Shown: positions 2,153 through 48,760 of the stretch, one piece after another
How positions within the stretch are numbered: position 1 is the stretch's first letter
How the letters are laid out: the number at the start of each line of letters is the position of its first letter
Assembly (NCBI GenBank): GCA_030639555.1
Contig: DAOWCM010000001.1
Location: forward strand, 1-50,547
Direction: 5' to 3'
DNA length: 50,547 nt
From: Candidatus Eiseniibacteriota bacterium
GTDB lineage: Bacteria > Joyebacterota > Joyebacteria > Joyebacterales > Joyebacteraceae
Notes under the pieces: model-generated
Told to the model about the DNA's origin: nothing
The model's database searches: none
Seen by the model: only the letters and a program-made list of their open reading frames with translations
Translations under genes and position numbers: made by a program

Positions 2153-2560
2153 ATGGCCAAGGGTATCTACGAACTATTCACGACCGACGAGAACCTCGAG
2201 AAGGAGGGCTTCGCGCTAGAGTACGGCGAGGCCACCTTCATCATCGCCCGTGCGGGTGGTGCGAACAAGAAGTTCCAGTCCATCATGGAGCGCAAGATGC
2301 GCCCCTATCGCTCCGCCATCAACGCGGGCACGATGGACGAGAGCACCGCCGAGAAGCTGCTCGCGGAGGCATACGCCGACGCGGTCATCCTCGCGTGGGA
2401 CGGCGTCACCGGCCCGGACGGCGAGGAACTCTCCTTCACCAAGGAGAATGTCGTCAAGGTGCTGCTCGACCTGCCGGACCTGTTCCGGGACATCCAGGAG
2501 CAGTCGCAGCGCGTCGCGAACTTCACGAAGGCGGGCACCGAAGAAGACGCAAAAGACTGA
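2153..2560 (+). CDS. Tail assembly chaperone (gpG-like)
   Basis: 135-aa acidic ORF with RBS GGGAG. It occupies the canonical position between the tube and tape-measure genes. Confidence 0.65.
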   Translation: MAKGIYELFTTDENLEKEGFALEYGEATFIIARAGGANKKFQSIMERKMRPYRSAINAGTMDESTAEKLLAEAYADAVILAWDGVTGPDGEELSFTKENVVKVLLDLPDLFRDIQEQSQRVANFTKAGTEEDAKD

Positions 2561-3346: not shown

Positions 3347-6300
3347 ATGGCGACCGAAGTTCTCGACATTGTCGTCCGCCAGCGCGGCGCGCGGGTGGTT
3401 GCCCGGGACATCGCGAAGATAGGTATAGCCGCGGACACCTCGGCGCGTTCCCTCAGGACGCTGCAGAACGGTCTCAAGAGTGCGCAGGGTGCGCTGCAGC
3501 GGGTGCAGGCCACCACTGCGGCCGCCTCCACCAACATGAAAGCGTTCGGCGGCGCGGCCGCGGGCGCCAAGCGATCCCTCACAGCCCTTGGGACGGGCGT
3601 CGCCCTCATCGGCGGCGCGATCACCGCGGCGCTCATCAGGCCCCTCGCTGGAGCCGTCCGCGCCGCGGGCGACTTCCAGGCGGCGATGAACCTGACGGGC
3701 GTGTTGGCCAACGTGGAGCGCACCGGCGAATCGTTCAAGGCCCTCGAGGACAAGGCGAAAAGCCTCGGCATCACCACCGTGTTCTCCGCCGTCCAGGCTG
3801 CCGAGGGCATGCAGTTCCTCGCGAAGGCAGGCTTCGAGGCGAACGAGATCCTCGCAGCGATCGAGCCCACTACCAACCTCGCGGCCGCGGCGAACATCGA
3901 CCTCGCGCGGGCGGCGGACATCGCCACGAACATCCTGCGAGGCTTCCAGCAGACCACGGACCAGCTTCCCGCGGCCATTGACACCCTCACGTCTGCGTTC
4001 ACGAGTTCCAACACGAACATCGAGGAGCTCGGCAAGACGTTCGCGGCTGTCGGCCCGATCGCGGTCAAGGCTGGCCAGCAGTTCAAGGACGTCGCCGCGG
4101 TCACCTCGGCGCTGGCGGACGCCGGCATCAAGGGGCAGAAGGCTGGCATCGCCCTCCGCCGTATCTTCATCAACCTTCAGACGGACTCCGCCAAGCTCTC
4201 CCCGATCCTGAGCCGCATCGGCGTCTCGCTGTTCGAGGTCGGCGAGGACGGCGTCAAGAAGCTGCGGCCGCTCGACAAAATCTTCAAGGACATCGCGAAT
4301 TCCTCCGCCACCACGCAGGATAAGATCAGGCTGTTCGGCGCGCGGGCCATCGCCGCCGCGGGCATCATCGAAGACTCCGCGCCGTCCCTCGAGAAGTTCG
4401 CCGACAGGATCGGCAGCGACGTCGGCCGGGCGGCAGAGGTAGCCGAGGCAAGGCTGCTCGGGTTCAACGGCGCGATGCTCGAGTTGAGGAGTGCCCTCGA
4501 GGGCCTCGGCATCGCAATCGCGGAGGCCGGGCTCCTGGACTTCCTGGAGTTCGTGACCGACAAGGTCAAGGGCGCCGTCCGTGCGTTCACGCAGCTCCCG
4601 AAGCCCATCCGGGCGTTCATAGGTTTTGGTGCTGCAGCCGCCGCGGTTCTCGCCATACTCACGCTGAAGATCGGCCTTCTGATCATCGCGATCTCAGTCC
4701 TGAGCGGGTCGGGCGGCTTCCTCGGACTCGTCGGCGTGTTGGGTAAAGTCGGGACCGCGCTGAAGACGGTCAGCCTGTTCTTCGTCACGAATCCTATCGG
4801 CCTCATGGTCACGGCGCTCGCCGCCCTCGGGGTGGCTTTGTTCCTGGCCAGGGACAAGCTCATCGAGTTCGGTGACTCGCAGTTCAGGGTCAAGGATCTA
4901 GTCAGCGCCGCGTGGGACGACATCACCGAGCGTTTCGAGGAAGGTGGGACGGCCGCGGAGAACGCCGTCAAGAAAAGCAAGGATGCGATCAAGGAGCTGG
5001 AGGAGGCGGAGAAGAAGTCGACGTTCGGCGATGTATTCATAACTGGATTCCTACTCATCCAGGCCGCGTCTATCACTGCCCTCCGGTTCATAGGCAGTCA
5101 GTTCGACATCTTCATCGAAACCTTGAAGCGGAAGCTCGGCTTTTTCAGCAGGGTCTTCGAGGCGTTCCAGACCGGGGGCATAGTCGCCGCATTCGTTGAG
5201 GCCGGGAAGGATTCCGGGGACGGCTTTGTAACGGCACTCGGGAAGGGCCTCGGAGAACTCCCGGACATATTTGCGGAAGAGATCCTGTCCAGCCTCGAGG
5301 TCTTGGGCGACGCCGAGAAGAAGTTCCTCGCCGAGCGAGACAAGAATCTGCCGAAAGGTGGAACACTCCCCCCGCCGGGAACACCCAAAGGAAAGGAACT
5401 ACCGATACCGATCAGCGAGGGAGAGCTGAAGCGACGCCAGAACGCACTCAACGCACTGACGGCTTCCCTGAACACTGCCACCGAGGTCGAGAAGAAGCTG
5501 TTTGCCGCGGAGACCGCGTTGAACGACGCGCGCCGCGTGGGCGCGGGCCTGATCAGCGAGCAGACCGAGGAATTCATCAGGCAGAGGCAGGCTACCCTGA
5601 TCTTCGAGGAGCTCGAGCGCGCGATCGACCCCGTCGCCGCCGCCATGTTCGAGGAGGAGCGGGCCCTCCGCGACGTCGATGCGGCCGCGAAGGCCGCCGG
5701 TATCTCCGGCGAGAGGCTCGCCCGCACCCAGGAGCTGGTCAAGGAGAAGTTCCGCGACGCGCGCCTCGAGATAAAGGAGTTCCAGGAGCAGCTCGGCACC
5801 GGCGAGGCAATCACCGAGGGCCTGCGCAAGGGCTTCGAGGACTTCAACGACAGCCTCGGCACGATGTTCTCGAACATCCGTGAGGTCACGGCAAATACCC
5901 TCGACGGCATGCTCGACGAGGTGAACAATTTCATCACGACGGGCGAGGCAGACTTCCGCGGATTCGCGCTAAGCGTGATCGCGGAGATCCAGAAGATCAT
6001 CCTCAAGCTGTTCGTGCTGCAGAGCATCCGCGCGTTCGAGCAGACGATTGAGCAGGGCAAGGGCGTCGGAGAGTTCGCCAAGGCGTTCTTCGGCCCGAGG
6101 CTGAAGGCGACGGAGCCAGGCGCCGCACAGGCCGGCGCACCTGCCCCCGGCGCACCCGCCCCCGGCGGCGTCACGACCGCCACGGGCTTCCAGCTACAGG
6201 GTCCGCAGTTCGGTGGGGGTGCAGCCGCCGCCATAGCGGAGCAGGTCCCGGGCAAGAGCCCAGGCGACCCGGTGCACTCGTCGATCACGGCGGACTCCCC

Positions 6301-19254: not shown

Positions 19255-19727
19255 TATCCGGTCGCCTTCACGCACAGCTCGCAGCCGGCGACCGCGTTCA
19301 TGTGGTACGGGCAGTTCACCTCGAGAGGCTTGCCCTCCATCTCCGTGATGATGTTGCTGTACTTGTCGAGCAGCCGCTGCGCCGCGCCGGCCGGCGGCCG
19401 GTCGTCGTCCAGGGAGTCGGTCGCCTCGGCGTCGAGGATGATCCCCAGGCACGCCTTCGCGTGCCCCAGGTGGTGCAGCCCGCTGTCGGCGGCGTTCTCC
19501 TCCCCGTCGAGCCACGCGAGCAGGTGCCGCTGGCAAGCCGCGATGTAGACTGTCGCGATCACCTTCTTCTCGCGCCAGTTGAACGGGCCGTACTTCACGG
19601 CGCCGTTCCGCATGGCCATCGCCTCGTGGATGAGGCCGGCGGTCGGCAGGAGGTGCAGCGGGACCTTCTTGAGTCCGATGCGGTCCTTGGGATTCATCTC
19701 GCGGTTGTCCTTGGGGCTCTCACTCAC
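19254..19727 (-). CDS. DUF5664-type protein (dATP/dGTP diphosphohydrolase N-terminal domain-like)
   Basis: KDRIGLKKVPLHLLPTAGLIHEAMAMRNGAVKYGPFNWRE...CQRHLLAWLDGEENAADSGLHHLGHA matches my recollection of the DUF5664 pattern. The GTG start overlaps the SNF2 stop (GTGA). An alternative ATG lies at 19697. Confidence 0.6.
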   Translation of the reverse strand: MSESPKDNREMNPKDRIGLKKVPLHLLPTAGLIHEAMAMRNGAVKYGPFNWREKKVIATVYIAACQRHLLAWLDGEENAADSGLHHLGHAKACLGIILDAEATDSLDDDRPPAGAAQRLLDKYSNIITEMEGKPLEVNCPYHMNAVAGCELCVKATG

Positions 19728-21157
19728 TGGTGTATCTCCTCAACTAGCGCGGCCTTCAAGTCGCTCTGCTTGCGGTCCTTCCGCTTCAGAACGCCCGAGA
19801 CCACGCTGTCATAGGTGTCTCTCGCGACCAGATGGTACACGAACACTGTATCCGATTTCTGTCCCTGCCGGTATAGCCGGCGGTTGAGCTGGTCGTACAT
19901 TTCGAGGTCCCAGGGGAGCGTGAACCAGACGATCGCATTCGAGCCTTCCTGCATGTTGAGCCCGTGGGCCCCGGCCTGCGGCTGGACTAGGATCACTGGA
20001 TGCTTCCCGGCATTCCACTCCCGTTGTATCCTCGCTGTTTCTGCAGGTTTCGTGCCTCCCCCGATCACCGGCGTGTCCTTGCCGATCCGCTGTCTAATCG
20101 CCTCTGCCTCGCTCCTGAACCAGTATGCGACCAAGGTGGGGCGGCCCGACTCTGCCAGGAGATCCTCGAGGGCGTCCAGCTTCTCTTTATGGACGGCGTG
20201 CCACCGCTTGCACTTATCGTCTGAGTAGAGGATCCCGCTCGCGATCTGCTGGAGCTTCACGAGGGTGCCGTCCATGAGAACGTCCTCGCCATCCTCGAAC
20301 CAGCCGACGCCGTGATTCTTGACGGTCTCGTAGAGCTCGAGGGCCTGGTCCGGGATCTTGACGGGCACCTCCGTCCGCACCAGTTCGGGCATGTCCAGCC
20401 AGTCCTCGGCACGCATGCACGTGATGTGCGGAGCGATGAGGTCCCGCACCTCCTCAAACGCCCCGTCCAGGGGGGTGTACTTCATGAACCTGCGGCTCGG
20501 GGGTCCGACCTGCCTCCCGTCGAACCATCGCTTCTGATACTCCGTGATCCGGTCGTCGAGGGCCTCGCCGCGGTCGAGTATCAGCATCTGGCCGTGCAGG
20601 TCCATGATGCCGTTCGGAATGGGGGTGCCGGTGAGGATCGTGCGGCGGCCGAAGTCCCCGAGGTAGCGGCGCAGCACCTTCATCCGGCGGCCGGTGGACC
20701 GCTTGAAGCGGGTGGACTCGTCGACGGTGAGCATCTCCGGGCGCCCGCGCCAGTCCTTCCACGGGCCCGACTTCCACACGACCCGGTACTTGCGCTTACT
20801 GCCGGGCCGCGTCTTCTGCACCACTGGCCCGCCGAACAGCTTCTCGATGGACTCCGGGTTGATCAGGAACACGTCGCCATCCGGGGGGTCGGCCACGTCA
20901 TGCTGGTGCAGGTTGACGACGCGGATGTCGCGGAACTGGCTCCACTTCTCCTGCTCGTCGGGCCACGTCGTGTAGCAGACGCGGAGCGGGGCGATCACCA
21001 GGGCCCGCTCCACGTCGCACGCCGCGCGCATCCGCCTGAACGCCTCGAGGATGCACGCCGTCTTGCCCAGGCCCGGGTCCATGAACAGGCCGTGGTAGGG
21101 ATCCGCAATCACGTTGCAGATTGCTCGCTCCTGATAGGCGTGCGGCTCGAAGATCAT
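19724..21157 (-). CDS. SNF2-family DNA helicase / translocase
   Basis: 477 aa with HAYQ, GLGKT (Walker A), VDEST (DExx), LTGTPIPN and C-terminal helicase motifs. Confidence 0.85.
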   Translation of the reverse strand: MIFEPHAYQERAICNVIADPYHGLFMDPGLGKTACILEAFRRMRAACDVERALVIAPLRVCYTTWPDEQEKWSQFRDIRVVNLHQHDVADPPDGDVFLINPESIEKLFGGPVVQKTRPGSKRKYRVVWKSGPWKDWRGRPEMLTVDESTRFKRSTGRRMKVLRRYLGDFGRRTILTGTPIPNGIMDLHGQMLILDRGEALDDRITEYQKRWFDGRQVGPPSRRFMKYTPLDGAFEEVRDLIAPHITCMRAEDWLDMPELVRTEVPVKIPDQALELYETVKNHGVGWFEDGEDVLMDGTLVKLQQIASGILYSDDKCKRWHAVHKEKLDALEDLLAESGRPTLVAYWFRSEAEAIRQRIGKDTPVIGGGTKPAETARIQREWNAGKHPVILVQPQAGAHGLNMQEGSNAIVWFTLPWDLEMYDQLNRRLYRQGQKSDTVFVYHLVARDTYDSVVSGVLKRKDRKQSDLKAALVEEIHQ

Positions 21158-22263: not shown

Positions 22264-24342
22264 ACGCCAACCGTCGGCGGCAATCGGAAAGTCGAGCGCC
22301 CACTTCGGCCGCTCGTTCAGAATCTGCTTGAACTCCTCGAGGGAGCCCTGGCCCTTCGGGACCTCGGCCACGATCTCGTCGTGGACGGTGAGGATGATCG
22401 GGTAGCCGGCACGCTCCGCCCGGAGCATGGCCTCCGCCATGATGTCGCGGCACAGCGCCTGCACGATGTTCTCCGTCAGCTTCCCGCCGTACGTCTTGCA
22501 ATTCGGGATCCACAGGTTCGGGGCGTACGTCGCGTACCCGGTGAAATGCAGCGCGGGTCGCTTGAACTTCTCATCCAGGTCGATGCGCGGGTCTAGGTAC
22601 GAGAGGAGCCTGCCGCTGGGGAGTCTGCAGTGCAGGAATCGGCCCAGCACCTTGAAGCGCACGTGGCCGAACTCGACGAGCTTGCCCGGGTTGCGGACCG
22701 CCCTCGAGGCCGCCCGGTCGACGCCATACCAGAACTCGCAGATGCGCCACCGAGCGTCCCGCCAGTCGCGGACAATCGTCTCGGACTGCTCGTCGGTGAG
22801 CTCGATACCCATGCCGTCGGCATAGTTCACGAGGGCCCGCCACCCCATCTGATAGCCGCACCCTAGCGTGGCGATCTTCCCGTTGCCGCGCTCCAGCTTA
22901 TCGGCCTTCGTGATGCGGCGACCGTACATCTGGGACGCGGTCCACGTGTAGATGTCCCAGTCTGCCTTCGGGTCCGCGTCCAGGTCGGCGAACGCCTGTA
23001 GCATCTCCTTGTCGCCCGCCACCCACGCCGTGCCGCGGGCCTCGATCGCGGAGTAGTCGGCCGCGAGGAGGTCGTGCCCCGGCGCGGCTATGATCGCGCC
23101 GCGCAGGATGCTCGAGAGGAGCGTCATGATGTTGTCGTGCCCGTAGAGCATGCACAGGTCGTCGTAGTCGTACCGGAGCACGTCTGCGCAGACGCCGTCG
23201 ATGTCGTCCGGGCAGTTGCGCGGCAGGTTGTGGGGCTGGATGCCCGCGCCGCCCCACCGGCCGGTCGTCGCCGCGTGGTAGCGCATCGTCTCCCGCACCC
23301 GATCGTCCTCGGGGTCCATGCGGTTGATCATGGCGCGGTACTTCTTGGTGGACGTCTTGTTCAGCGCCAGCCAGAGCTCGATCGCGCGCTGGGAGGGCTG
23401 GTCTTCGACGCTGCCAAGCATCTTCCTGAGGGACTTACCTTCGGTGGTCTCCTTCTCCTCGAAGTGCTCCACGCCAGTGTCCGCGTCGATGATCTTCTTC
23501 AGCTTCACCGGCACCTCGGTGCCGCGGCTGCGCAGCCACTCCTTGAACTTCTCCCGGTGGGTCTCCTTCTCGACGGCGAAGTAGGTCACCGCGGAGAGCT
23601 GGTCGCGCATGGCCGCCTCGGCGAGCGCGCCCACCTCGAGGGCCTTCATCGCGAGCGCCCGGTCGATGCGGAGCCCGCGGAAGTTGATCGTCTGGTCGAG
23701 CTGCCATATCTCCAGCTCGGTGCCGCTCAGCGGGCGCAGGGCGCGGCCGACGGCCTTCTCGGAGCGCACGTCCTGCACGCAGTATTTCATCACCCTCAGG
23801 ACGTCCTTGCGCTTCTGGTGCCACTTCGAGTCCGGGTCGCCCCTCGTCGGCTTGCGGACCTTCGTGAGCTTCATCATGGCCTTGTGGCCTTCCATGTCCT
23901 TCTGCTGGCCCAGCCCGAGGTCTTTGCAGACGTGCTCGAGCTTGCGGCGGAGTGCGAACGCCGCGGCGGCCGAGGCGGAGCAGCGCCACTGCCAGTCCTG
24001 CACCGCAGGCCAGCCGTAGCGCTCTACCATGATCCAGCGCCAGATGCAGCGCTCGAAGTGCGCGCCGTGGGCCTCGAACAGCTCGCCAGCGTCGATGCGC
24101 TCGAACAGCTCGAGGGGATCGGGCGGCCGCTCGAAGTTCGAGTGCGTCCGGTCGCGCTTCCGCTGCGCCTGCAGGTAGCTCAAGTCCTCGATGCCCGGGT
24201 GCCACACGTGGACCGGGTTGTAGTCCCGGCTGTAGCTCCAGCATAGGACGAGGATCTCCGTCGACGGGTGGCGCGAGTAGAGGTAGGACCCGACGTCCTT
24301 GATGCTCACCTCGGAGCGGGTCTCGAAGTCGCCGAAGATCAT
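22243..24342 (-). CDS. Family A DNA polymerase with N-terminal 3'-5' exonuclease domain
   Basis: The start was reset to MIFGDFETRS (ATG 24342; ExoI-type DxE). Pol motifs are A (LLAADYSAIEAR), B (RGNGKIATLGCGYQMG) and C (LTVHDEIV). 699 aa. Confidence 0.9.
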   Translation of the reverse strand: MIFGDFETRSEVSIKDVGSYLYSRHPSTEILVLCWSYSRDYNPVHVWHPGIEDLSYLQAQRKRDRTHSNFERPPDPLELFERIDAGELFEAHGAHFERCIWRWIMVERYGWPAVQDWQWRCSASAAAAFALRRKLEHVCKDLGLGQQKDMEGHKAMMKLTKVRKPTRGDPDSKWHQKRKDVLRVMKYCVQDVRSEKAVGRALRPLSGTELEIWQLDQTINFRGLRIDRALAMKALEVGALAEAAMRDQLSAVTYFAVEKETHREKFKEWLRSRGTEVPVKLKKIIDADTGVEHFEEKETTEGKSLRKMLGSVEDQPSQRAIELWLALNKTSTKKYRAMINRMDPEDDRVRETMRYHAATTGRWGGAGIQPHNLPRNCPDDIDGVCADVLRYDYDDLCMLYGHDNIMTLLSSILRGAIIAAPGHDLLAADYSAIEARGTAWVAGDKEMLQAFADLDADPKADWDIYTWTASQMYGRRITKADKLERGNGKIATLGCGYQMGWRALVNYADGMGIELTDEQSETIVRDWRDARWRICEFWYGVDRAASRAVRNPGKLVEFGHVRFKVLGRFLHCRLPSGRLLSYLDPRIDLDEKFKRPALHFTGYATYAPNLWIPNCKTYGGKLTENIVQALCRDIMAEAMLRAERAGYPIILTVHDEIVAEVPKGQGSLEEFKQILNERPKWALDFPIAADGWRAERYRK

Positions 24343-24603: not shown

Positions 24604-24804
24604 CTACGACCCGTGGATGGGGCAGTGGGCGTCGTTCGCCGCGCTTCTCTTGCAGGAGCAGACCATGCGTACGAGCAGCACACACTCTCCCGCATCTTCT
24701 ATGCGTACACTCGCAACATCTCCCCAGCAGTCGCACCCCTCGGTGTTGACCGTTAGATCCTGAGGCATCTCGGTCAGCGCGGCGATCAGCTCGGCGACGG
24801 TCAT
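24604..24804 (-). CDS. Small Cys/His-rich protein (66 aa)
   Basis: The start is at MTVAEL (ATG 24804, an ATGA overlap). Motifs are GCDCWG and CSCK...HCPIH. Confidence 0.45.
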   Translation of the reverse strand: MTVAELIAALTEMPQDLTVNTEGCDCWGDVASVRIEDAGECVLLVRMVCSCKRSAANDAHCPIHGS

Positions 24805-28251: not shown

Positions 28252-28860
28252 CTACTCCAGGTCTCCCAGGTCCGCCGGTGCGACGTCGCCCTCGGGGATC
28301 TTGTCGAAGTTGTCGAACGCCTTGACCGGATCCGGGTCGTCTCCGAACGGCTCGCCGTCGCAGATGAACTGGACGTGGCGGAGTCCGAAGTTGAAGCCCC
28401 TCTGCTTCTTGTCGTAGCAGTAGGGGTTCGCGATCACGCGCGCCCAGCTTCCCGGGTAGAACACGTTCGCGACGTCGCAGAGGTCGACAGGCTTCTGGGA
28501 CACCGTGACCGCACCCGGCCGCTTCGTGGAGTTGAACCGGACGTACCAGTTCCCCGCGTACCCGTCCCACTCGGCGTCGTCGCCGTCGAGGAAGGGCATC
28601 TTGAACTTCTTGGGAAGTCCGTTCGGGTACTCCGCCGACGTCAGGGTCTTCGCGATCTGCCGCATCACGGACAGGTCGTGCTTGGCGAAGTCGTCCCAGG
28701 GCGACAACTCCATCATCTCTTCCTTTGGGAAGAGTAGAGTGACCTGGAACTTCGCGTCGCCTTCGTCGTACTCCCGGGCCTTGTCGAGATTCGGATACGA
28801 GACGCGCCCGTACGGCGTCACGATCCTGTTGTTGGGCTTGGTGTCAGCCATATTGCTCAT
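28252..28860 (-). CDS. ssDNA-binding protein (DUF2815, T7 gp2.5-like)
   Basis: 202 aa. It has N-terminal RVSYPNL..., a YVRFNS / NFGL pattern and an acidic C-terminal tail (EGDVAPADLGDLE). It lies adjacent to the DUF2800 gene, as is usual for this pair. Confidence 0.7.
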   Translation of the reverse strand: MSNMADTKPNNRIVTPYGRVSYPNLDKAREYDEGDAKFQVTLLFPKEEMMELSPWDDFAKHDLSVMRQIAKTLTSAEYPNGLPKKFKMPFLDGDDAEWDGYAGNWYVRFNSTKRPGAVTVSQKPVDLCDVANVFYPGSWARVIANPYCYDKKQRGFNFGLRHVQFICDGEPFGDDPDPVKAFDNFDKIPEGDVAPADLGDLE

Positions 28861-30131
28861 TCCTCCGTGCTGCCGGTACCAGCAGCTAGTTGTGCGTCCG
28901 CGGACGCGTCAGTGAAATCGAGTATAGGGGCAGATTCCTCCCCGCGCAAATCGGACGACCGGGCGACCGTCAGGTCCCCCTCCGGCTTGTGCGCGTGCTG
29001 GGCCACCCACTTCTTGCCCACGAGCTTCTCGAGCTGCCGCGGGGATCGTAGCTTCTGGGTGTGGGTGTCCTTCTTGCTGACACCCGCCTTGTTCGTGAGG
29101 CGACGCTCCACGTCCGCCGCGTCCCGCCACGCCCGATTCGCCCGCTTGCGGACGAGCTTGAAGCCTGGCACCTCCATGCCGGTCTCGAGGGCGCGCTGCA
29201 GCATCGCGTTGACCTCCTTGGCCCAGAACTCCGCCACGTCTGCGACCGCCTTGGCCCGAGCGAGCTCGAGGGGGTTGTCCATCTCCGGGAGGCGGATGGT
29301 AGGCACGTCCACATCGTCGGGAAACTCCGCGATGGCCTCCTGCACCACGAGCTGCCGCAGTTCCTTGCAGCGCGCGGCCGCGGGGCAGAACCTGCAGTGA
29401 TCGCCGGGTACGAGGGGTGCGTCGGGGTCCCTCGTCGCGTCGGCGGCGGAGGCGAGGTGATCGGCGAAATCCAGCAGCGCCTCGACGGTCACGGTCCATC
29501 GTCGCACGGGGCCGTCCTCGTGGAGTCCCCGGGGCTGCACGATCACGAGGGTGATGTGTGACACGTCGTACTCGCCGACGGCGCGCAGTGCGCCGAGGCC
29601 GTAGTACATGAGCTGGTCGTTCCAGTCGATGTTGACCTGGACGCCCTTGCCGTACTTGAAGTCGGCGACGACCAGCTCGCCGAACGACTGTATCACCATG
29701 GCGTCGCCGGTGCCGAACAGCTCCTCCTCCCGGCCGGGGAGTGGGTACACTGTCTGCTCGATGCGTAGCTCGGATCCGGGCAGCCGCTCGAGGTGGCCAC
29801 GTATCTCGCGCAGGTAGACCTCGACGGCCTCTATCATCTCATCGCTGATCTCGAACCAGTGGCCGCTGTCGCGCTCGTCCTGGTTGGTCGTGGCGGCATC
29901 CTGCATCATGCCGAAGTCAGAGATCCACCAGTCTCGGAACTGCTCCGGGTCCTCGTGTTCGGATAGACATCGCTCGCAGAGGTAATGCGCCGCCGTGCCC
30001 TCCCGGGCGTACACAGAACTGCGATTCTGCTCGTTCTTCGGCAGCTTGGCGATCTCGCGCACGGATCCCAGGCAGGTCATCCACCTGTGTGCGCTCGAGG
30101 CGCCCAGCACTGCGTGCGTGGTAGCGGGCAC
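28857..30131 (-). CDS. DUF2800 PD-(D/E)xK nuclease (Cas4/RecB-like exonuclease)
   Basis: 424 aa. It has N-terminal LGASSAHRWMTCLGS, a C-terminal CRFCPAAARC cysteine cluster, and a GTG start 5 nt after GGAG. Confidence 0.7.
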   Translation of the reverse strand: MPATTHAVLGASSAHRWMTCLGSVREIAKLPKNEQNRSSVYAREGTAAHYLCERCLSEHEDPEQFRDWWISDFGMMQDAATTNQDERDSGHWFEISDEMIEAVEVYLREIRGHLERLPGSELRIEQTVYPLPGREEELFGTGDAMVIQSFGELVVADFKYGKGVQVNIDWNDQLMYYGLGALRAVGEYDVSHITLVIVQPRGLHEDGPVRRWTVTVEALLDFADHLASAADATRDPDAPLVPGDHCRFCPAAARCKELRQLVVQEAIAEFPDDVDVPTIRLPEMDNPLELARAKAVADVAEFWAKEVNAMLQRALETGMEVPGFKLVRKRANRAWRDAADVERRLTNKAGVSKKDTHTQKLRSPRQLEKLVGKKWVAQHAHKPEGDLTVARSSDLRGEESAPILDFTDASADAQLAAGTGSTEE

Positions 30132-30169
30132 TGTTCTCCTCTCAGGTGTCCCGGGACCCCAGCCTCAAG

Positions 30170-30184
30170 GCCCGACCCGTGCCA
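30170..30184 (-). promoter_or_regulatory. Sigma-54-like -24/-12 element (TGGCAC-GGGTC-GGGC)
   Basis: Read on the minus strand, GG and GC have the correct spacing. The element lies about 40 nt upstream of the DUF2800 GTG, inside a 104-nt non-coding gap. The -12 box is weaker than consensus. Confidence 0.3.
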
Positions 30185-30235
30185 GAATTGGACAGAGCGG
30201 CCGGGGGTCCGGGACGCCTAGTTGTCGTGCAATCC

Positions 30236-30670
30236 CTATGCCGTGAGGCGCTCGAGCATCTGCGGGAGGTGCTTCTCGTCCATCGCGGTGATGCTCTCGG
30301 AACCGAATTCCTCCAGCCAGGTCTTCACGTCGGCGCGGTCGTTGCCGGCCTCGAGGAATGCGCCCGCGGCCTTGCGGACCTCCTCCCGGGTTACCTTCGC
30401 GGCGGGCGCCGGGTCCGGGGCGGAAGCGGGCGCCTCATTCTCGGTAGCCGGCGTCGCAGCGGCGGCCGGCTTGGCGGCGCGCGACCTCCGCCGCTTGGGC
30501 TTCTCGGGCTCCGCCTCCGCGGTCGCGGTTTCCGCGACTGCCGCGAGGGGTCCGCCGGCGGGCGCCGCCGGCCTGTTCAGCTCCGTCGCCGCGGCGAGGA
30601 TCGACTCCGCGAGGAGTGCGATTGCCTTCGTGGTGCCGGAGTCCAGCGTCACGTTGATGTTGATGTCCAT
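30236..30670 (-). CDS. Hypothetical protein with Ala/Pro-rich linker (144 aa)
   Basis: The ATG follows RBS GGAGAG. The ends look structured and flank a low-complexity PAAPAGG...AAKPAAAA linker. Confidence 0.5.
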   Translation of the reverse strand: MDININVTLDSGTTKAIALLAESILAAATELNRPAAPAGGPLAAVAETATAEAEPEKPKRRRSRAAKPAAAATPATENEAPASAPDPAPAAKVTREEVRKAAGAFLEAGNDRADVKTWLEEFGSESITAMDEKHLPQMLERLTA

Positions 30671-34405: not shown

Positions 34406-34993
34406 CTAAGGTACCAGGATCGCCTTGTCGCGGGGCATGAACAATTCGTGCGAGCGGCCCCCGCACCCGATCGAGAACTGCGACGTTATGTTGATGGCAT
34501 CGCGCGCCGCGTCCCGGGGGTCTGCCCCGGCTCCAACGGCGTAGCGGTAGACGCCCTCCGCCATCTCGTTCCCGGATCCGACGGTCTCCATGATGCCAGG
34601 ATTCAAGGGGCCGTCGACGAATCTTATTGACATGCACGTGTACACCGCGGCGAGTGAGTGGCCGTCGGTGAGGAGGTACGACAGGTCCCAGTACGGAGGT
34701 CCCCCGCCCCTGTCAGTGTCCGAGTGCCACCCGCGGCTGTCTAGGACTTGGCGGAGTTCGTTCGACAAGCCGGACAGTGAGACCAATCCGGCGTCGTTCC
34801 GCCCCATCTCCGCCGCGAGGGCTTCTCGCATGACCTCTAAGCCATTCAAAGTTCCCGACACCGCGAACATCACCCCGAGAAGGGTGTCGATCTTCACGAT
34901 GTCGTGCTTCTTGACACACGCCGACACGCCGAGCCCGTCGGCGACTATCGTGCAGCCCGCCTCGTCCAGGACCCCGATGCAGATCGTCATCAT
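34406..34993 (-). CDS. Ntn-hydrolase, proteasome beta / HslV-like
   Basis: The start is at MMTICIGV (ATG 34993 or 34990, overlapping the upstream stop), which puts Thr right after the initiator Met(s). TICIGVLDEAGCTIVADG...VKIDTLLGVMFAVSGT follows the proteasome-beta pattern. 195 aa. Confidence 0.55.
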   Translation of the reverse strand: MMTICIGVLDEAGCTIVADGLGVSACVKKHDIVKIDTLLGVMFAVSGTLNGLEVMREALAAEMGRNDAGLVSLSGLSNELRQVLDSRGWHSDTDRGGGPPYWDLSYLLTDGHSLAAVYTCMSIRFVDGPLNPGIMETVGSGNEMAEGVYRYAVGAGADPRDAARDAINITSQFSIGCGGRSHELFMPRDKAILVP

Positions 34994-36633
34994 CCCCTCC
35001 AATGGTTCTTGATGATGTGACACATCTGGCGGTAGCCGTTCGCGTGCAGTAGCACGTGCGACTGCAGCCAGCCGGATGGGCCGATGTTGTAGCCCTGCCG
35101 GTACTCCGCGGAGAGCCCTCCCATGTAGACGCCCTGCCAGATGCCCGGCCCGTGGCCATGCCCGACTATAGAGCGCGTGCCAATCTGCGACAGGTTTCGG
35201 ATGGAGCCGCGCGCACCGTTCGGGCCGAGGTGACCGTGCATCCCCATCTCGACGTCGAGGAGCTGGTAGGACTCGTCGAACTTGAGGAAGCGGATGTTCT
35301 CCGGGAACGGGTCCTGACCGATCCAGCGGAGGGCCACCTCGAAGGGAATCGGGAACGCTCCGTGCCGCCGGTGGTGGGCGAGCATCTCGCCGGCCAGCCG
35401 GTGGTACATCTCCGCGTTCTCGGGCTCCACGTTCCGCTCGCCGGTCTCGAGCCAGCGGTCGAGGAAGTAGTCGTGGTTCGAGCGGACGACCAGCACCTCC
35501 TCGAACTCGGGCAGGTCTAGGAGCCACCCCTTCGTGCGGAGCAACTCCTGGTAGAGGTTCGTCTTGTCGTCGCGCCACATGGCCGCGCGGGTGAGCCGCT
35601 TGCCTTGCTCATGCGGGTTGACCGACTTCATGTCCCCCAGGTCGTGGAGGAACAGCCTCCGCGGGTGGAGCACGTCGTAGATGCCGCCCGGCCCGAAGGT
35701 CGCCTCCATCACGTTCTCCGCCGGGCCGTACGGCGCGTGGATGTCCCCCATGCTGATCGCCTCGGGCGGCGGCGCGTCCTCGACGTGGTCGGCGTAGTAC
35801 GCCTTGTCGTAGTCGATGAACTTCTCGCCGTCCCATGTGATCTCGCGCAGGTGGAAGCGGTCGCCGCGGATCTCGACCACCACCGCGGCGGCGGTGTGGT
35901 GAAACTGGGCCTGATCGCCCGCGAGCGACTCGCCGTACCTCTTCTCCGTGACTGCACCCGTCGTGTAGAGCAGCTTCGGGAGCTTCTCCTGCGGCGTCGG
36001 CACGGTGCGCATGCAGAGCTGGGGGTGTCCGATGACCGCGGAGCGCGCCTTCGTGCGACCGCTGACGCGGGCGGGCAGCGGGTTGGCCGCCGTGGCCTGC
36101 GCCTTCGTCGTCATGAATGAGAGCAGCGGGTGCGGGCGGATCTCGTCGTCCAGCATGTGGCCGTCGAGCTCGGGCGCCCACCACTCCTTCTCCCGCAAGT
36201 TCTCGCTCTCCTTCGGCGACTTCGGGTTGTAGTATCGGACGGGGTTGAACAGGCGCTCGCCCTGCTTCTCTTCGCAGTACAGCCCGATGGCACTCCAGAA
36301 TCCTGGGATCACGTCGCAGTTGTTCACCGCCGAGCCGATCACGAAGTTCTCGGATCGCTCGAGTGCGCGGATGTCGTCCGTGCTGCGCGCGAAGGACATG
36401 ATCGCGGGCGCGCGGTGCATGCTGACCGCCTCGGTGTACGTCTCGCCAAACTCGTACAGGGCCCACTTTCGGAAGCCGGTCGGCCCGCGGTATGGGTAGT
36501 CGTGCTCCACAATGAGGTGGCGGACGAATGCCTGTATGCGCGTGTCGTCGTCGCCGGAGAGCAGCCCCTCCAACCAGCATCTCACCGCTTCAACCGCCTC
36601 TGGACGCTTGGAAAACCACTCGGCGATCGTCAA
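34990..36633 (-). CDS. Calcineurin-like metallophosphoesterase with ~270-aa N-terminal extension (possible nuclease)
   Basis: 547 aa. MPE motifs are GDIHAP, SNHD, HGH and GHGHG. The TTG start lies 5 nt after AAGGGAG. It is the first gene of the leftward operon. Confidence 0.65.
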   Translation of the reverse strand: MTIAEWFSKRPEAVEAVRCWLEGLLSGDDDTRIQAFVRHLIVEHDYPYRGPTGFRKWALYEFGETYTEAVSMHRAPAIMSFARSTDDIRALERSENFVIGSAVNNCDVIPGFWSAIGLYCEEKQGERLFNPVRYYNPKSPKESENLREKEWWAPELDGHMLDDEIRPHPLLSFMTTKAQATAANPLPARVSGRTKARSAVIGHPQLCMRTVPTPQEKLPKLLYTTGAVTEKRYGESLAGDQAQFHHTAAAVVVEIRGDRFHLREITWDGEKFIDYDKAYYADHVEDAPPPEAISMGDIHAPYGPAENVMEATFGPGGIYDVLHPRRLFLHDLGDMKSVNPHEQGKRLTRAAMWRDDKTNLYQELLRTKGWLLDLPEFEEVLVVRSNHDYFLDRWLETGERNVEPENAEMYHRLAGEMLAHHRRHGAFPIPFEVALRWIGQDPFPENIRFLKFDESYQLLDVEMGMHGHLGPNGARGSIRNLSQIGTRSIVGHGHGPGIWQGVYMGGLSAEYRQGYNIGPSGWLQSHVLLHANGYRQMCHIIKNHWRG

Positions 36634-36672
36634 ATGCGCTCCCTTCGGCCCTCGGCGGCCGCCTCAGCGGTG

Positions 36673-36688
36673 TGCAAATCGCGGGCCA
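36673..36688 (-). promoter_or_regulatory. Sigma-54-type promoter (TGGCCC-GCGAT-TTGCA)
   Basis: The minus-strand read matches TGGCAC-N5-TTGCW at 10 of 11 defined positions. It lies about 40 nt upstream of the TTG start at 36633, in the 129-nt divergent intergenic region. Confidence 0.5.
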
Positions 36689-36762
36689 AGAGAAAGTTCC
36701 CAGATAAGCTCAAGATCCTGCGCCCGCGAACCGATGAGAAGAATGTCACTTCAGGAGAGCCA

Positions 36763-37311
36763 ATGCAACAGCCAATTTGCACGCGGTGCACAGAACTCGA
36801 GGCAGAGATTGAGCGCCTCAGCCGGGACCCCGTCACGGGGCTCGCAGGGCGCGCGGTGTTCGACCAGATGATAGGGCTCGAGTTCTCCCGCGCCAAGCGC
36901 ACAGGGGCCTCCCTGGGCGTCCTGATGCTTGATCTGGACCACTTCAAGGCGGTGAACGACGCCCTCGGCCACCTCGAGGGCGACAAGGTTCTGGCGCGCG
37001 TGGGCCGGGTGCTTCGTGCAAGCGTGCGCGGATCGGACACCGCCGCGCGCTACGGCGGAGAGGAATTCGTGGTCCTGGTCAGTGCGACAAGCCCGGAGGG
37101 CCTTCGCGTCCTGGCGGAAAGAATACGAAAACGCATCGAGCGAGTCGGCCTGGCAACAGACCCCGCCCCCTATACGGTGAGCATCGGGTGCGCGTGTATT
37201 CACCCGGGCGACAAGGAGGGGCTGCAGATCGTGGAGCGCGCGGACGCGGCGCTGTACACCGCCAAGGAGACGGGCAGGAACAAGGTTTGCATGGCGGAGG
37301 GGGCAGAGTGA
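36763..37311 (+). CDS. Stand-alone GGDEF diguanylate cyclase (no sensor domain)
   Basis: The ATG lies 4 nt after RBS AGGAGAG. 182 aa with DPVTGL, LDLDHFKAVND, GHLEGD, RYGGEEF, an I-site RGSD five residues before GGEEF, and ADAALYTAKETGRNKV. The N-terminus has CTRC plus a short coiled coil. Confidence 0.85.
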   Translation: MQQPICTRCTELEAEIERLSRDPVTGLAGRAVFDQMIGLEFSRAKRTGASLGVLMLDLDHFKAVNDALGHLEGDKVLARVGRVLRASVRGSDTAARYGGEEFVVLVSATSPEGLRVLAERIRKRIERVGLATDPAPYTVSIGCACIHPGDKEGLQIVERADAALYTAKETGRNKVCMAEGAE

Positions 37312-48117: not shown

Positions 48118-48506
48118 GCATCATGAACCCCACGCCCGAGGCCCGCGAGGTGGTCCTCCAGGAGGCGCGAGAATCGGGACACGAGGTAGTGTATGGCGAC
48201 CCGTGGCTGTTGCTACTCGACCTCGACTCGAAGGTCGCCCTGGCGGACGCCAAGGCACAGCTCAAGCGTTTCTCCCCGCACCTGGCGGTGCAGTGGATCG
48301 AAATGACGAGGTCGAAGTCCGGGAACTGGCACCTGTACGTGCGACTCAGCTACTTCATGGATCGCAAGGATCGCCTGTTCTGGCAGGCCACCCTCGGCAG
48401 CGACCGAATCCGGGCGGGACTCGACTGGATCTGGGCTCTGAAGCACGAGGAGGAGTGCTTCCTAGTCGAGCTGGCCGACGCGAAGAGGGAGGTGGTGATA
48501 CTGTGA
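48114..48506 (+). CDS. Hypothetical protein (130 aa)
   Basis: ATGA overlap with the upstream gene. Protein-like composition. Confidence 0.5.
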   Translation: MSIMNPTPEAREVVLQEARESGHEVVYGDPWLLLLDLDSKVALADAKAQLKRFSPHLAVQWIEMTRSKSGNWHLYVRLSYFMDRKDRLFWQATLGSDRIRAGLDWIWALKHEEECFLVELADAKREVVIL

Positions 48507-48760
48507 TTCACCGACGACGATTCCTCAAGTCCCTGGTCGGCCTGGCGGCCATTCCATTCGCGCCGCTCGCCGCGCTGGCGCCGAAGTTCGCGACTGGCGG
48601 CATTGTTCGCCCGGGCGCGTACGTCGTCGGCTCGTCGAACACCTGCTTCCTGCAATACAACCGAGGGCCAGTACCCTGGCTGCAGTCGCACTGCATAGTG
48701 TATATGAACGCCCGGAATCAGATGATAGAGGTACCTCTCGAAGGAGGGAACTGGTCATGA
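48503..48760 (+). CDS. Small protein with Tat-type signal (85 aa)
   Basis: GTGA overlap. The N-terminus reads IHRRRFLKSLVGLAAIPFAPLAALA. Confidence 0.45.
   Translation: MIHRRRFLKSLVGLAAIPFAPLAALAPKFATGGIVRPGAYVVGSSNTCFLQYNRGPVPWLQSHCIVYMNARNQMIEVPLEGGNWS

Follow-up and report, generated by a model that had tools for sequence, protein, structure and literature searches.

Phage gene timing is normally ascribed to host sigma-70 promoters, phage polymerases, phage sigma factors and repressors. Bacterial RpoN (sigma-54) promoters, such as glnAp2 with NtrC, carry GG and TGC blocks at a fixed spacing, 30–50 nt before the start, and in enteric bacteria glnAp1 (sigma-70) and glnAp2 (sigma-54) are tandem promoters. 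For sigma-28 promoters, the consensus is TCTAAAG-N14-GCCGATAA, as in Pseudomonas aeruginosa fliC (PMC12784957). Our literature search returned no description of sigma-54 promoters in phage genomes, and the nearest case was a set of weak in-silico matches before Xylella phage-related genes. An earlier note on this DNA had called gating of early phage genes by a host signalling pathway an unusual regulatory strategy for a phage, which holds for the literature searched.

The window analyzed here is a stretch of 50,547 nucleotides and corresponds to the entire contig C59 of a genome bin (2.64 Mb in 461 contigs, 64% GC) from cold-seep metagenomes. Two divergent gene arms of an uncultured tailed phage are separated in it by a gap of 129 nt at 36634–36762, coordinates that were confirmed on the sequence for what had been described as the space between outward-facing operons. 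From its motifs, the gap most likely carries a sigma-54 promoter on one side and a sigma-28-type promoter on the other, so that the first genes of both arms would depend on alternative host sigma factors. Like bacterial RpoN promoters, the leftward element has GG and TGC blocks at the fixed spacing and at the usual distance from the start, and relatives conserve its defined bases only. Unlike them, it belongs to a phage genome, lacks a neighboring activator gene, has C for A at -22, and is accompanied by no enhancer recognized in the window. The features of the family are the absence of a detectable activator, the pairing of a sigma-54 site with a divergent sigma-28-type promoter, and a GGDEF cyclase gene in first place in the sigma-28-type arm.

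The divergent control region and its sigma-54-type element

The control region and its two flanking genes comprise the following features.

34990–36633, minus strand: first gene of the leftward arm, 547 aa, TTG start at 36633–36631 (PHROG 1745, E 8.6e-112)
36645–36639, minus strand: ribosome-binding site of the leftward gene, AAGGGAG, read from the sequence
36688–36673, minus strand: sigma-54-type -24/-12 element TGGCCC-GCGAT-TTGCA (TGGCCCGCGATTTGCA), from the sequence and relatives
36709–36737, plus strand: sigma-28/FliA-type promoter motif CTCAAG-N15-ACCGATGA, from gap alignment A2 and the scan of relatives
36753–36759, plus strand: ribosome-binding site of the rightward gene, AGGAGAG, read from the sequence
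36763–37311, plus strand: first gene of the rightward arm, a stand-alone GGDEF diguanylate cyclase of 182 aa with ATG at 36763 (Pfam PF00990, E 1.6e-44)

The leftward gene encodes a T5 A1-like 'DNA transfer protein' with metallophosphoesterase-type motifs. Its TTG start is fixed by an N-terminus that is conserved among relatives, and it is followed in the arm by genes for a primase-helicase, a DUF2800 exonuclease and DNA polymerase. Alignment A1 of the A1-like family shows GDxH, SNHD and HGH...GH without variation, motifs that typify calcineurin-like metallophosphoesterases, and an ORF at 48203–48760 weakly matches the C-terminal 40 residues of PHROG 1745. The GGDEF gene holds the first rightward place in many relatives (synteny in L002–L014, L214 and L025).

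Compared with the sigma-54 consensus TGGCAC-N5-TTGCW, the element agrees at 10 of 11 defined positions, the sole mismatch being C for A at -22. GG occupies 36687–36686 and TGC 36676–36674 (GC at 36675–36674), and the interval from GG to GC is exactly 10 bases. The element ends 39 nt ahead of the TTG start of the A1-like gene, and a transcript start near 36662 on the minus strand is predicted from its position. A look for RNA runs containing this sequence gave none. The match, with its GG and GC, and the AAGGGAG site and TTG start about 40 nt downstream had all been proposed in the earlier note and were borne out. ChIP experiments have shown sigma-54 polymerase at sites with C at -22, including Salmonella STM3072, TGGCCC... 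(PMC3844500), and E. coli IS01, CTGGCCT... (PMC4591121).

The motif is no more frequent in the window than expected by chance. Allowing at most one mismatch to the consensus, we counted one match where 0.94 are expected, and such a match also turned up in 61 of 100 shuffles. On a sigma-54 matrix that is approximate, being drawn up after the published logo with no fitting to data, the site has a score of 14.6, while 14.5 is attained by 45% of shuffled windows. Since these within-window statistics are not significant, any significance of the motif comes from its position, orientation and conservation in relatives only. The two best matrix matches in the window each sit at a gene boundary, on the coding strand, which is suggestive. 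The other of the two has the highest matrix score in the window.

30228–30243, minus strand: second sigma-54-like site CGGCAT-AGGGA-TTGCA (CGGCATAGGGATTGCA), score 14.7

This site is at the upstream edge of a 104-nt gap (30132–30235) before the DUF2800 exonuclease gene (28857–30131) and overlaps the stop codon of the gene at 30236–30670. The same gap holds a long imperfect inverted repeat (GTCCCGGACCCC ... GGGGTCCCGGGAC); site and repeat together could be a candidate internal promoter with a structured leader.

Sigma-54-type sites in relatives of the phage

The A1-like protein has hundreds of metagenomic relatives. A single-protein search of viral and genome collections returned no close relatives, and the loci were obtained by an alignment query. 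Their layout places the A1-like gene and a primase gene on one side and usually the GGDEF gene on the other. We scanned 120 nt ahead of the A1-like start codon in 28 loci representing about 20 lineages. Besides the window's own, four lineages have a sigma-54-type element at the orthologous place, 39–50 nt from the start, as listed below (sequence, matrix score, distance to the start codon).

Window, L008 and L009: TGGCCC-N5-TTGCA, 14.5–14.8, 39–42 nt
L215: TGGCAC-GCGGC-TTGCA (perfect), 18.0, 40 nt
L012: GGGCCC-GGACC-TTGCA, 11.1, 42 nt
L164: TGGAAC-N5-TGGCA, 9.4, 40 nt
L010: CGGCCC-CAAGT-TTGCA, 9.1, 50 nt

The lineages with the element fall in different clades of the A1-like protein tree. The window, L010, L012 and L215 agree throughout at nine of the 11 defined positions, namely the GGC.C and TTGCA blocks, and at none of the five spacer positions, and their flanks are not alignable; a pattern of the same kind has been used to argue for selection on sigma-54 sites (PMC4591121). 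The null consisted of natural 16-mers, 1.16 million in all, drawn from GC-rich loci in more distant relatives; in it, a score of at least 9 within a 20-nt positional window has a probability of 0.006. Five of 20 lineages then correspond to a binomial tail of 1e-7, a value that treats the lineages as independent though they are related and that uses a 20-nt window picked after inspection of the data; with a 120-nt window it becomes about 1e-3 (hand estimate). Retention of the element over about 45% protein divergence implies constraint. The claim of a sigma-54-type element in promoter position before the leftward replication arm is thus upheld by orthologous conservation, the defined bases being kept in several diverged lineages and the spacer left free.

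The element is absent from the orthologous place in most lineages, including L132, L025 (part of the complete relative G001), L134, L213, L214 and L216, and only degenerate versions occur in L013 and L014. Most relatives carry a sigma-70-like promoter at the A1-like gene, in place of the sigma-54 element or beside it, as in the following examples.

L215: TTGCGC-17-TACACT
L012: TTGCTC-17-TATGGT
L013: TTGAGC-17-CATAGT
L216: TTGCGG-16-TATGGT
L148: TTGACA-17-TATACT

In L215 and L012, the sigma-54-type element starts 7–10 nt past the -10 box of the sigma-70-like promoter. The L010 element lies within the spacer and -10 box of a good sigma-70 pair, TTGCCA-17-CATACT. In loci with both kinds of promoter, the sigma-54 site could serve as an additional promoter or, equally, as a competitor. 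As in glnAp1/glnAp2, the sigma-70-like promoter of L215 and L012 is just upstream of the sigma-54 element and serves the same gene; in contrast to that pair, the window clade has no recognizable sigma-70 partner where relatives carry one, and no NtrC-type sites were found. The promoter reading is favored in the window clade because of this missing partner. A sigma-70 scan of the gap at 36634–36762 likewise yielded no pair inside it. A sigma-70-like sequence, TTGGCG-17-TATCAT (9/12), faces leftward on the minus strand at 36896–36868, within the 5' part of the GGDEF gene, and could drive the leftward arm with a long leader running antisense to the start of the GGDEF gene.

Further sites were found elsewhere in the phage family. 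The complete relative G001 (65,243 nt) has no element before its A1-like gene and carries three identical perfect sites (TGGCACACGGGTTGCA), each with a score of 18.2, above that of every shuffle.

24658–24673 (L237:4758–4773), minus strand: perfect sigma-54 site of G001
24130–24145 (L237:4230–4245), minus strand: perfect sigma-54 site of G001
19713–19728 (L236:19713–19728), minus strand: perfect sigma-54 site of G001

All three are oriented in the gene direction with the start codon of a small gene 12–40 nt on, and each is followed by GTAGG within a shared 21-nt block, TGGCACACGGGTTGCAGTAGG. GTGACG...CGTCAC dyads lie 60–100 nt upstream of each site, at enhancer distance as in bacterial RpoN promoters; on sequence grounds, this arrangement is the ordinary look of an enhancer with a sigma-54 promoter. 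Two of the start codons are only 12–13 nt past the motif, so the messages may be nearly leaderless. A second perfect site of L215 is located in the gap before a downstream gene, and L214 has GGGCAC-N5-TTGCA 34 nt ahead of its divergent first gene. In the 57%-identical relative L010, a perfect TGGCACGGAGTTTGCA (2177–2192, minus strand) lies in sense orientation within the GGDEF gene, about 400 nt before the next gene.

Overall, six exact consensus sites occur over about 210 kb of the close family; by hand estimate, base composition would give about 0.17. None was found in about 0.9 Mb of the loci of more distant relatives. Five further, more distant IMG/VR genomes also gave none. The sites are thus not enriched over chance within the window, and are so only at the level of the family. 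We conclude that the family probably uses sigma-54-type promoters and that the window site appears to be the local copy at a recurrent position.

A sigma-28-type promoter facing the GGDEF arm

In the rightward direction, the -35 box CTCAAG (36709–36714) is followed after a 15-nt spacer by the -10 box ACCGATGA (36730–36737), which ends 25 nt before the ATG of the GGDEF gene. The window copy is degenerate, with 11 of 14 matches to CTAAAG-N14/15-GCCGATAA, a consensus taken from P. aeruginosa (PMC12784957). A rightward transcript start is predicted near 36745. In gap alignment A2, nearly all lineages show two boxes, CT(A/C)AAG and (G)CCGA(T/A), 14–15 nt apart and directed toward the GGDEF arm. Scanned in this direction, 17 of the 28 loci score at least 11/14, 16 of these 17 with a shuffle p below 0.05, and the site in the window is homologous to sites of relatives that score 12–14/14. 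The putative rightward promoter is thus, by its sequence, a family-wide promoter of the sigma-28/FliA type. No sigma-70 pair had been noticed for the rightward operon, and this stands for the gap itself; the operon is nevertheless preceded by a conserved sigma-28/FliA-type promoter, which was missed because only sigma-70 boxes had been sought.

Like known sigma-28 (FliA/SigD/WhiG) promoters, those of the family have both boxes with the right spacing and orientation, and the match is perfect (14/14) in L137, L138 and L141. Unlike them, the 11/14 copy in the window would drive a phage arm whose first gene encodes a GGDEF cyclase; the bin lacks FliA and flagella, and no phage sigma factor was detected. 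G001 has a second sigma-28-type site (13/14) 28 nt ahead of another gene. In L148, a more distant relative of lower GC content, a perfect sigma-28-type promoter (2376–2403) and then the perfect sigma-70 promoter listed above precede the A1-like gene, directly after which another sigma-28-type site (13/14) is found at 4157–4184. Two other readings of the conserved AACTTGAGC, as a -35 element for the leftward gene and as a box of the ECF or sigma-32 kind, were rejected, there being no conserved matching -10; read on the other strand, it fits sigma-28.

Activators, host and rival readings

A search for PF00158, the domain of bacterial enhancer-binding proteins (bEBPs), gave no match on the window contig, in agreement with the claim that none is encoded there, and none in G001. 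Sigma-70-family domains were likewise absent from the window and from G001; a 16-bit region-2 match in G001 was dismissed as a phage sigma factor because neither Pfam nor PHROGs confirmed it. No conserved upstream dyad or enhancer was found in the window. One candidate was a perfect palindrome.

36778–36790: 13-bp palindrome TGCAC-GCG-GTGCA (TGCACGCGGTGCA), about 120 nt upstream of the putative sigma-54 start

The palindrome was rejected as an NtrC-like enhancer, being formed by CxxC codons of the GGDEF gene and not kept in L008 or L009. An enhancer common to the window and the 13 sigma-54 promoters of the bin was also sought; only scattered 10–11-mers at inconsistent positions emerged, and the idea was abandoned.

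The bin has rpoN and at least six bEBPs. Its sigma-54-type promoters (G000 contigs C373, C136, C260, C431 and C451; loci L217–L228) precede, among others, pilB, pilT and the gene for a PleD-like response-regulator cyclase, and read TGGCAT or TGGCAC, not TGGCCC. The Caulobacter sigma-54 consensus is reportedly TGGCCC-N5-TTGC; a Caulobacter-type consensus was set aside, the literature search giving no support for that string and the bin promoters reading otherwise. No flagellin, FlhA or true FliA was found in the bin, and its best TIGR02479 matches are RpoD/RpoS-like and below the cut-off. The organism looks, from its gene content, like a pilus-motile, non-flagellated bacterium. The absence of FliA and flagella makes the bin doubtful as the phage host: the phage contig either was assigned to the wrong bin or carries a sigma-28-type promoter that an undetected factor reads. 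An identical protein is carried by an 87.7-kb contig.

From the motifs, their positions and conservation, and the lack of detectable phage activator and sigma genes, we infer the following scheme of polymerase binding, transcript starts, dependence on a host activator and timing. On the left, host polymerase with sigma-54 would bind TGGCCC-N5-TTGCA at 36688–36673, and the closed complex would stay idle until remodeled by an ATP-driven enhancer-binding protein, which would be the host's because the phage encodes none detectable. The transcript from about 36662 would then express the A1-like gene and, after it, the replication genes. On the right, the sigma-28/FliA-type promoter at 36709–36737 would express the GGDEF cyclase arm.

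We consider it probable that a working sigma-54 promoter is present at 36673–36688. A chance near-match or decayed relic, with the leftward arm served by an unrecognized sigma-70-family or phage-specific promoter, would account for the single match where 0.94 are expected in the window, for the patchy occurrence of the element among relatives and for its degenerate state in L013 and L014. GG...GC pairs are abundant in GC-rich DNA, and the sigma-70-like sequence at 36896–36868 could feed the arm via a long leader. This explanation is unlikely in view of the blocks conserved against a free spacer, the perfect consensus of L215 at the same distance and the comparison with the natural-sequence null; the placement of the two best matrix matches of the window at gene boundaries on the coding strand and the lack of exact sites in the loci of distant relatives also speak against it. 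It is rather unlikely, too, that the element binds sigma-54 polymerase yet acts as a brake or competitor on a neighboring sigma-70 or sigma-28 promoter, or serves some other role. Such action would suit the close or overlapping arrangements in L215, L012 and L010, and just 20 bp separate the -24 box in the window from the -35 box of the sigma-28-type promoter that faces the other way. Sigma-54 is able to repress where its site overlaps another promoter, and most bound sites are transcriptionally silent (PMC4591121). However, the window clade offers no sigma-70 pair to compete with, and the G001 sites and the second L215 site stand alone directly ahead of start codons, with upstream dyads, like ordinary promoters.

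Between the two promoters, the gaps of L010, L013, L025, L132, L134, L164 and L216 repeatedly contain motifs of the GGTGG(C)/GCCACC type, many of them in inverted pairs such as GGTGCC-N10-GGCACC in L013; these may be operators of a family-specific regulator. Their recurrence lends something to the notion that GGCCC-N5-TTGCA is itself an operator, bound by some protein of phage or host that has no relation to sigma-54, its likeness to the consensus being coincidental, as does the presence of GCCCGCGA as an 8-nt inverted pair at 36679–36686 and 36722–36729. About 0.4 such pairs are, however, expected by chance in a 129-nt GC-rich gap (hand estimate), and two blocks that keep a fixed 5-nt spacing and equal the sigma-54 consensus, including TGGCACG in L215 and the three G001 copies, would make a striking coincidence. 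We consider an operator of this kind very unlikely.

With a sigma-54 promoter on the left and a sigma-28-type promoter on the right, the family might tie its first transcription to the host flagellar hierarchy. The FliA-type promoter would fire at once in a motile cell, the phage diguanylate cyclase would raise c-di-GMP, and a c-di-GMP-sensing sigma-54 activator (of the FleQ/FlrA type or a ShkA–TacA type relay) would switch on or retime the sigma-54 promoters of the replication arm. We give this extension a low probability; if true, it would amount to a two-sigma, second-messenger-timed early program without any phage transcription factor.

More generally, tailed phages of about 60–88 kb appear to put their replication genes behind sigma-54 promoters without an activator of their own, and the other arm behind a flagellar-type promoter. 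Since the host must carry RpoN, and probably FliA, these promoters would offer a sequence handle for predicting the hosts of uncultured phages. Such phages could develop only in cells of a particular signaling or motility state, and the outcome of infection would be linked to host physiology.
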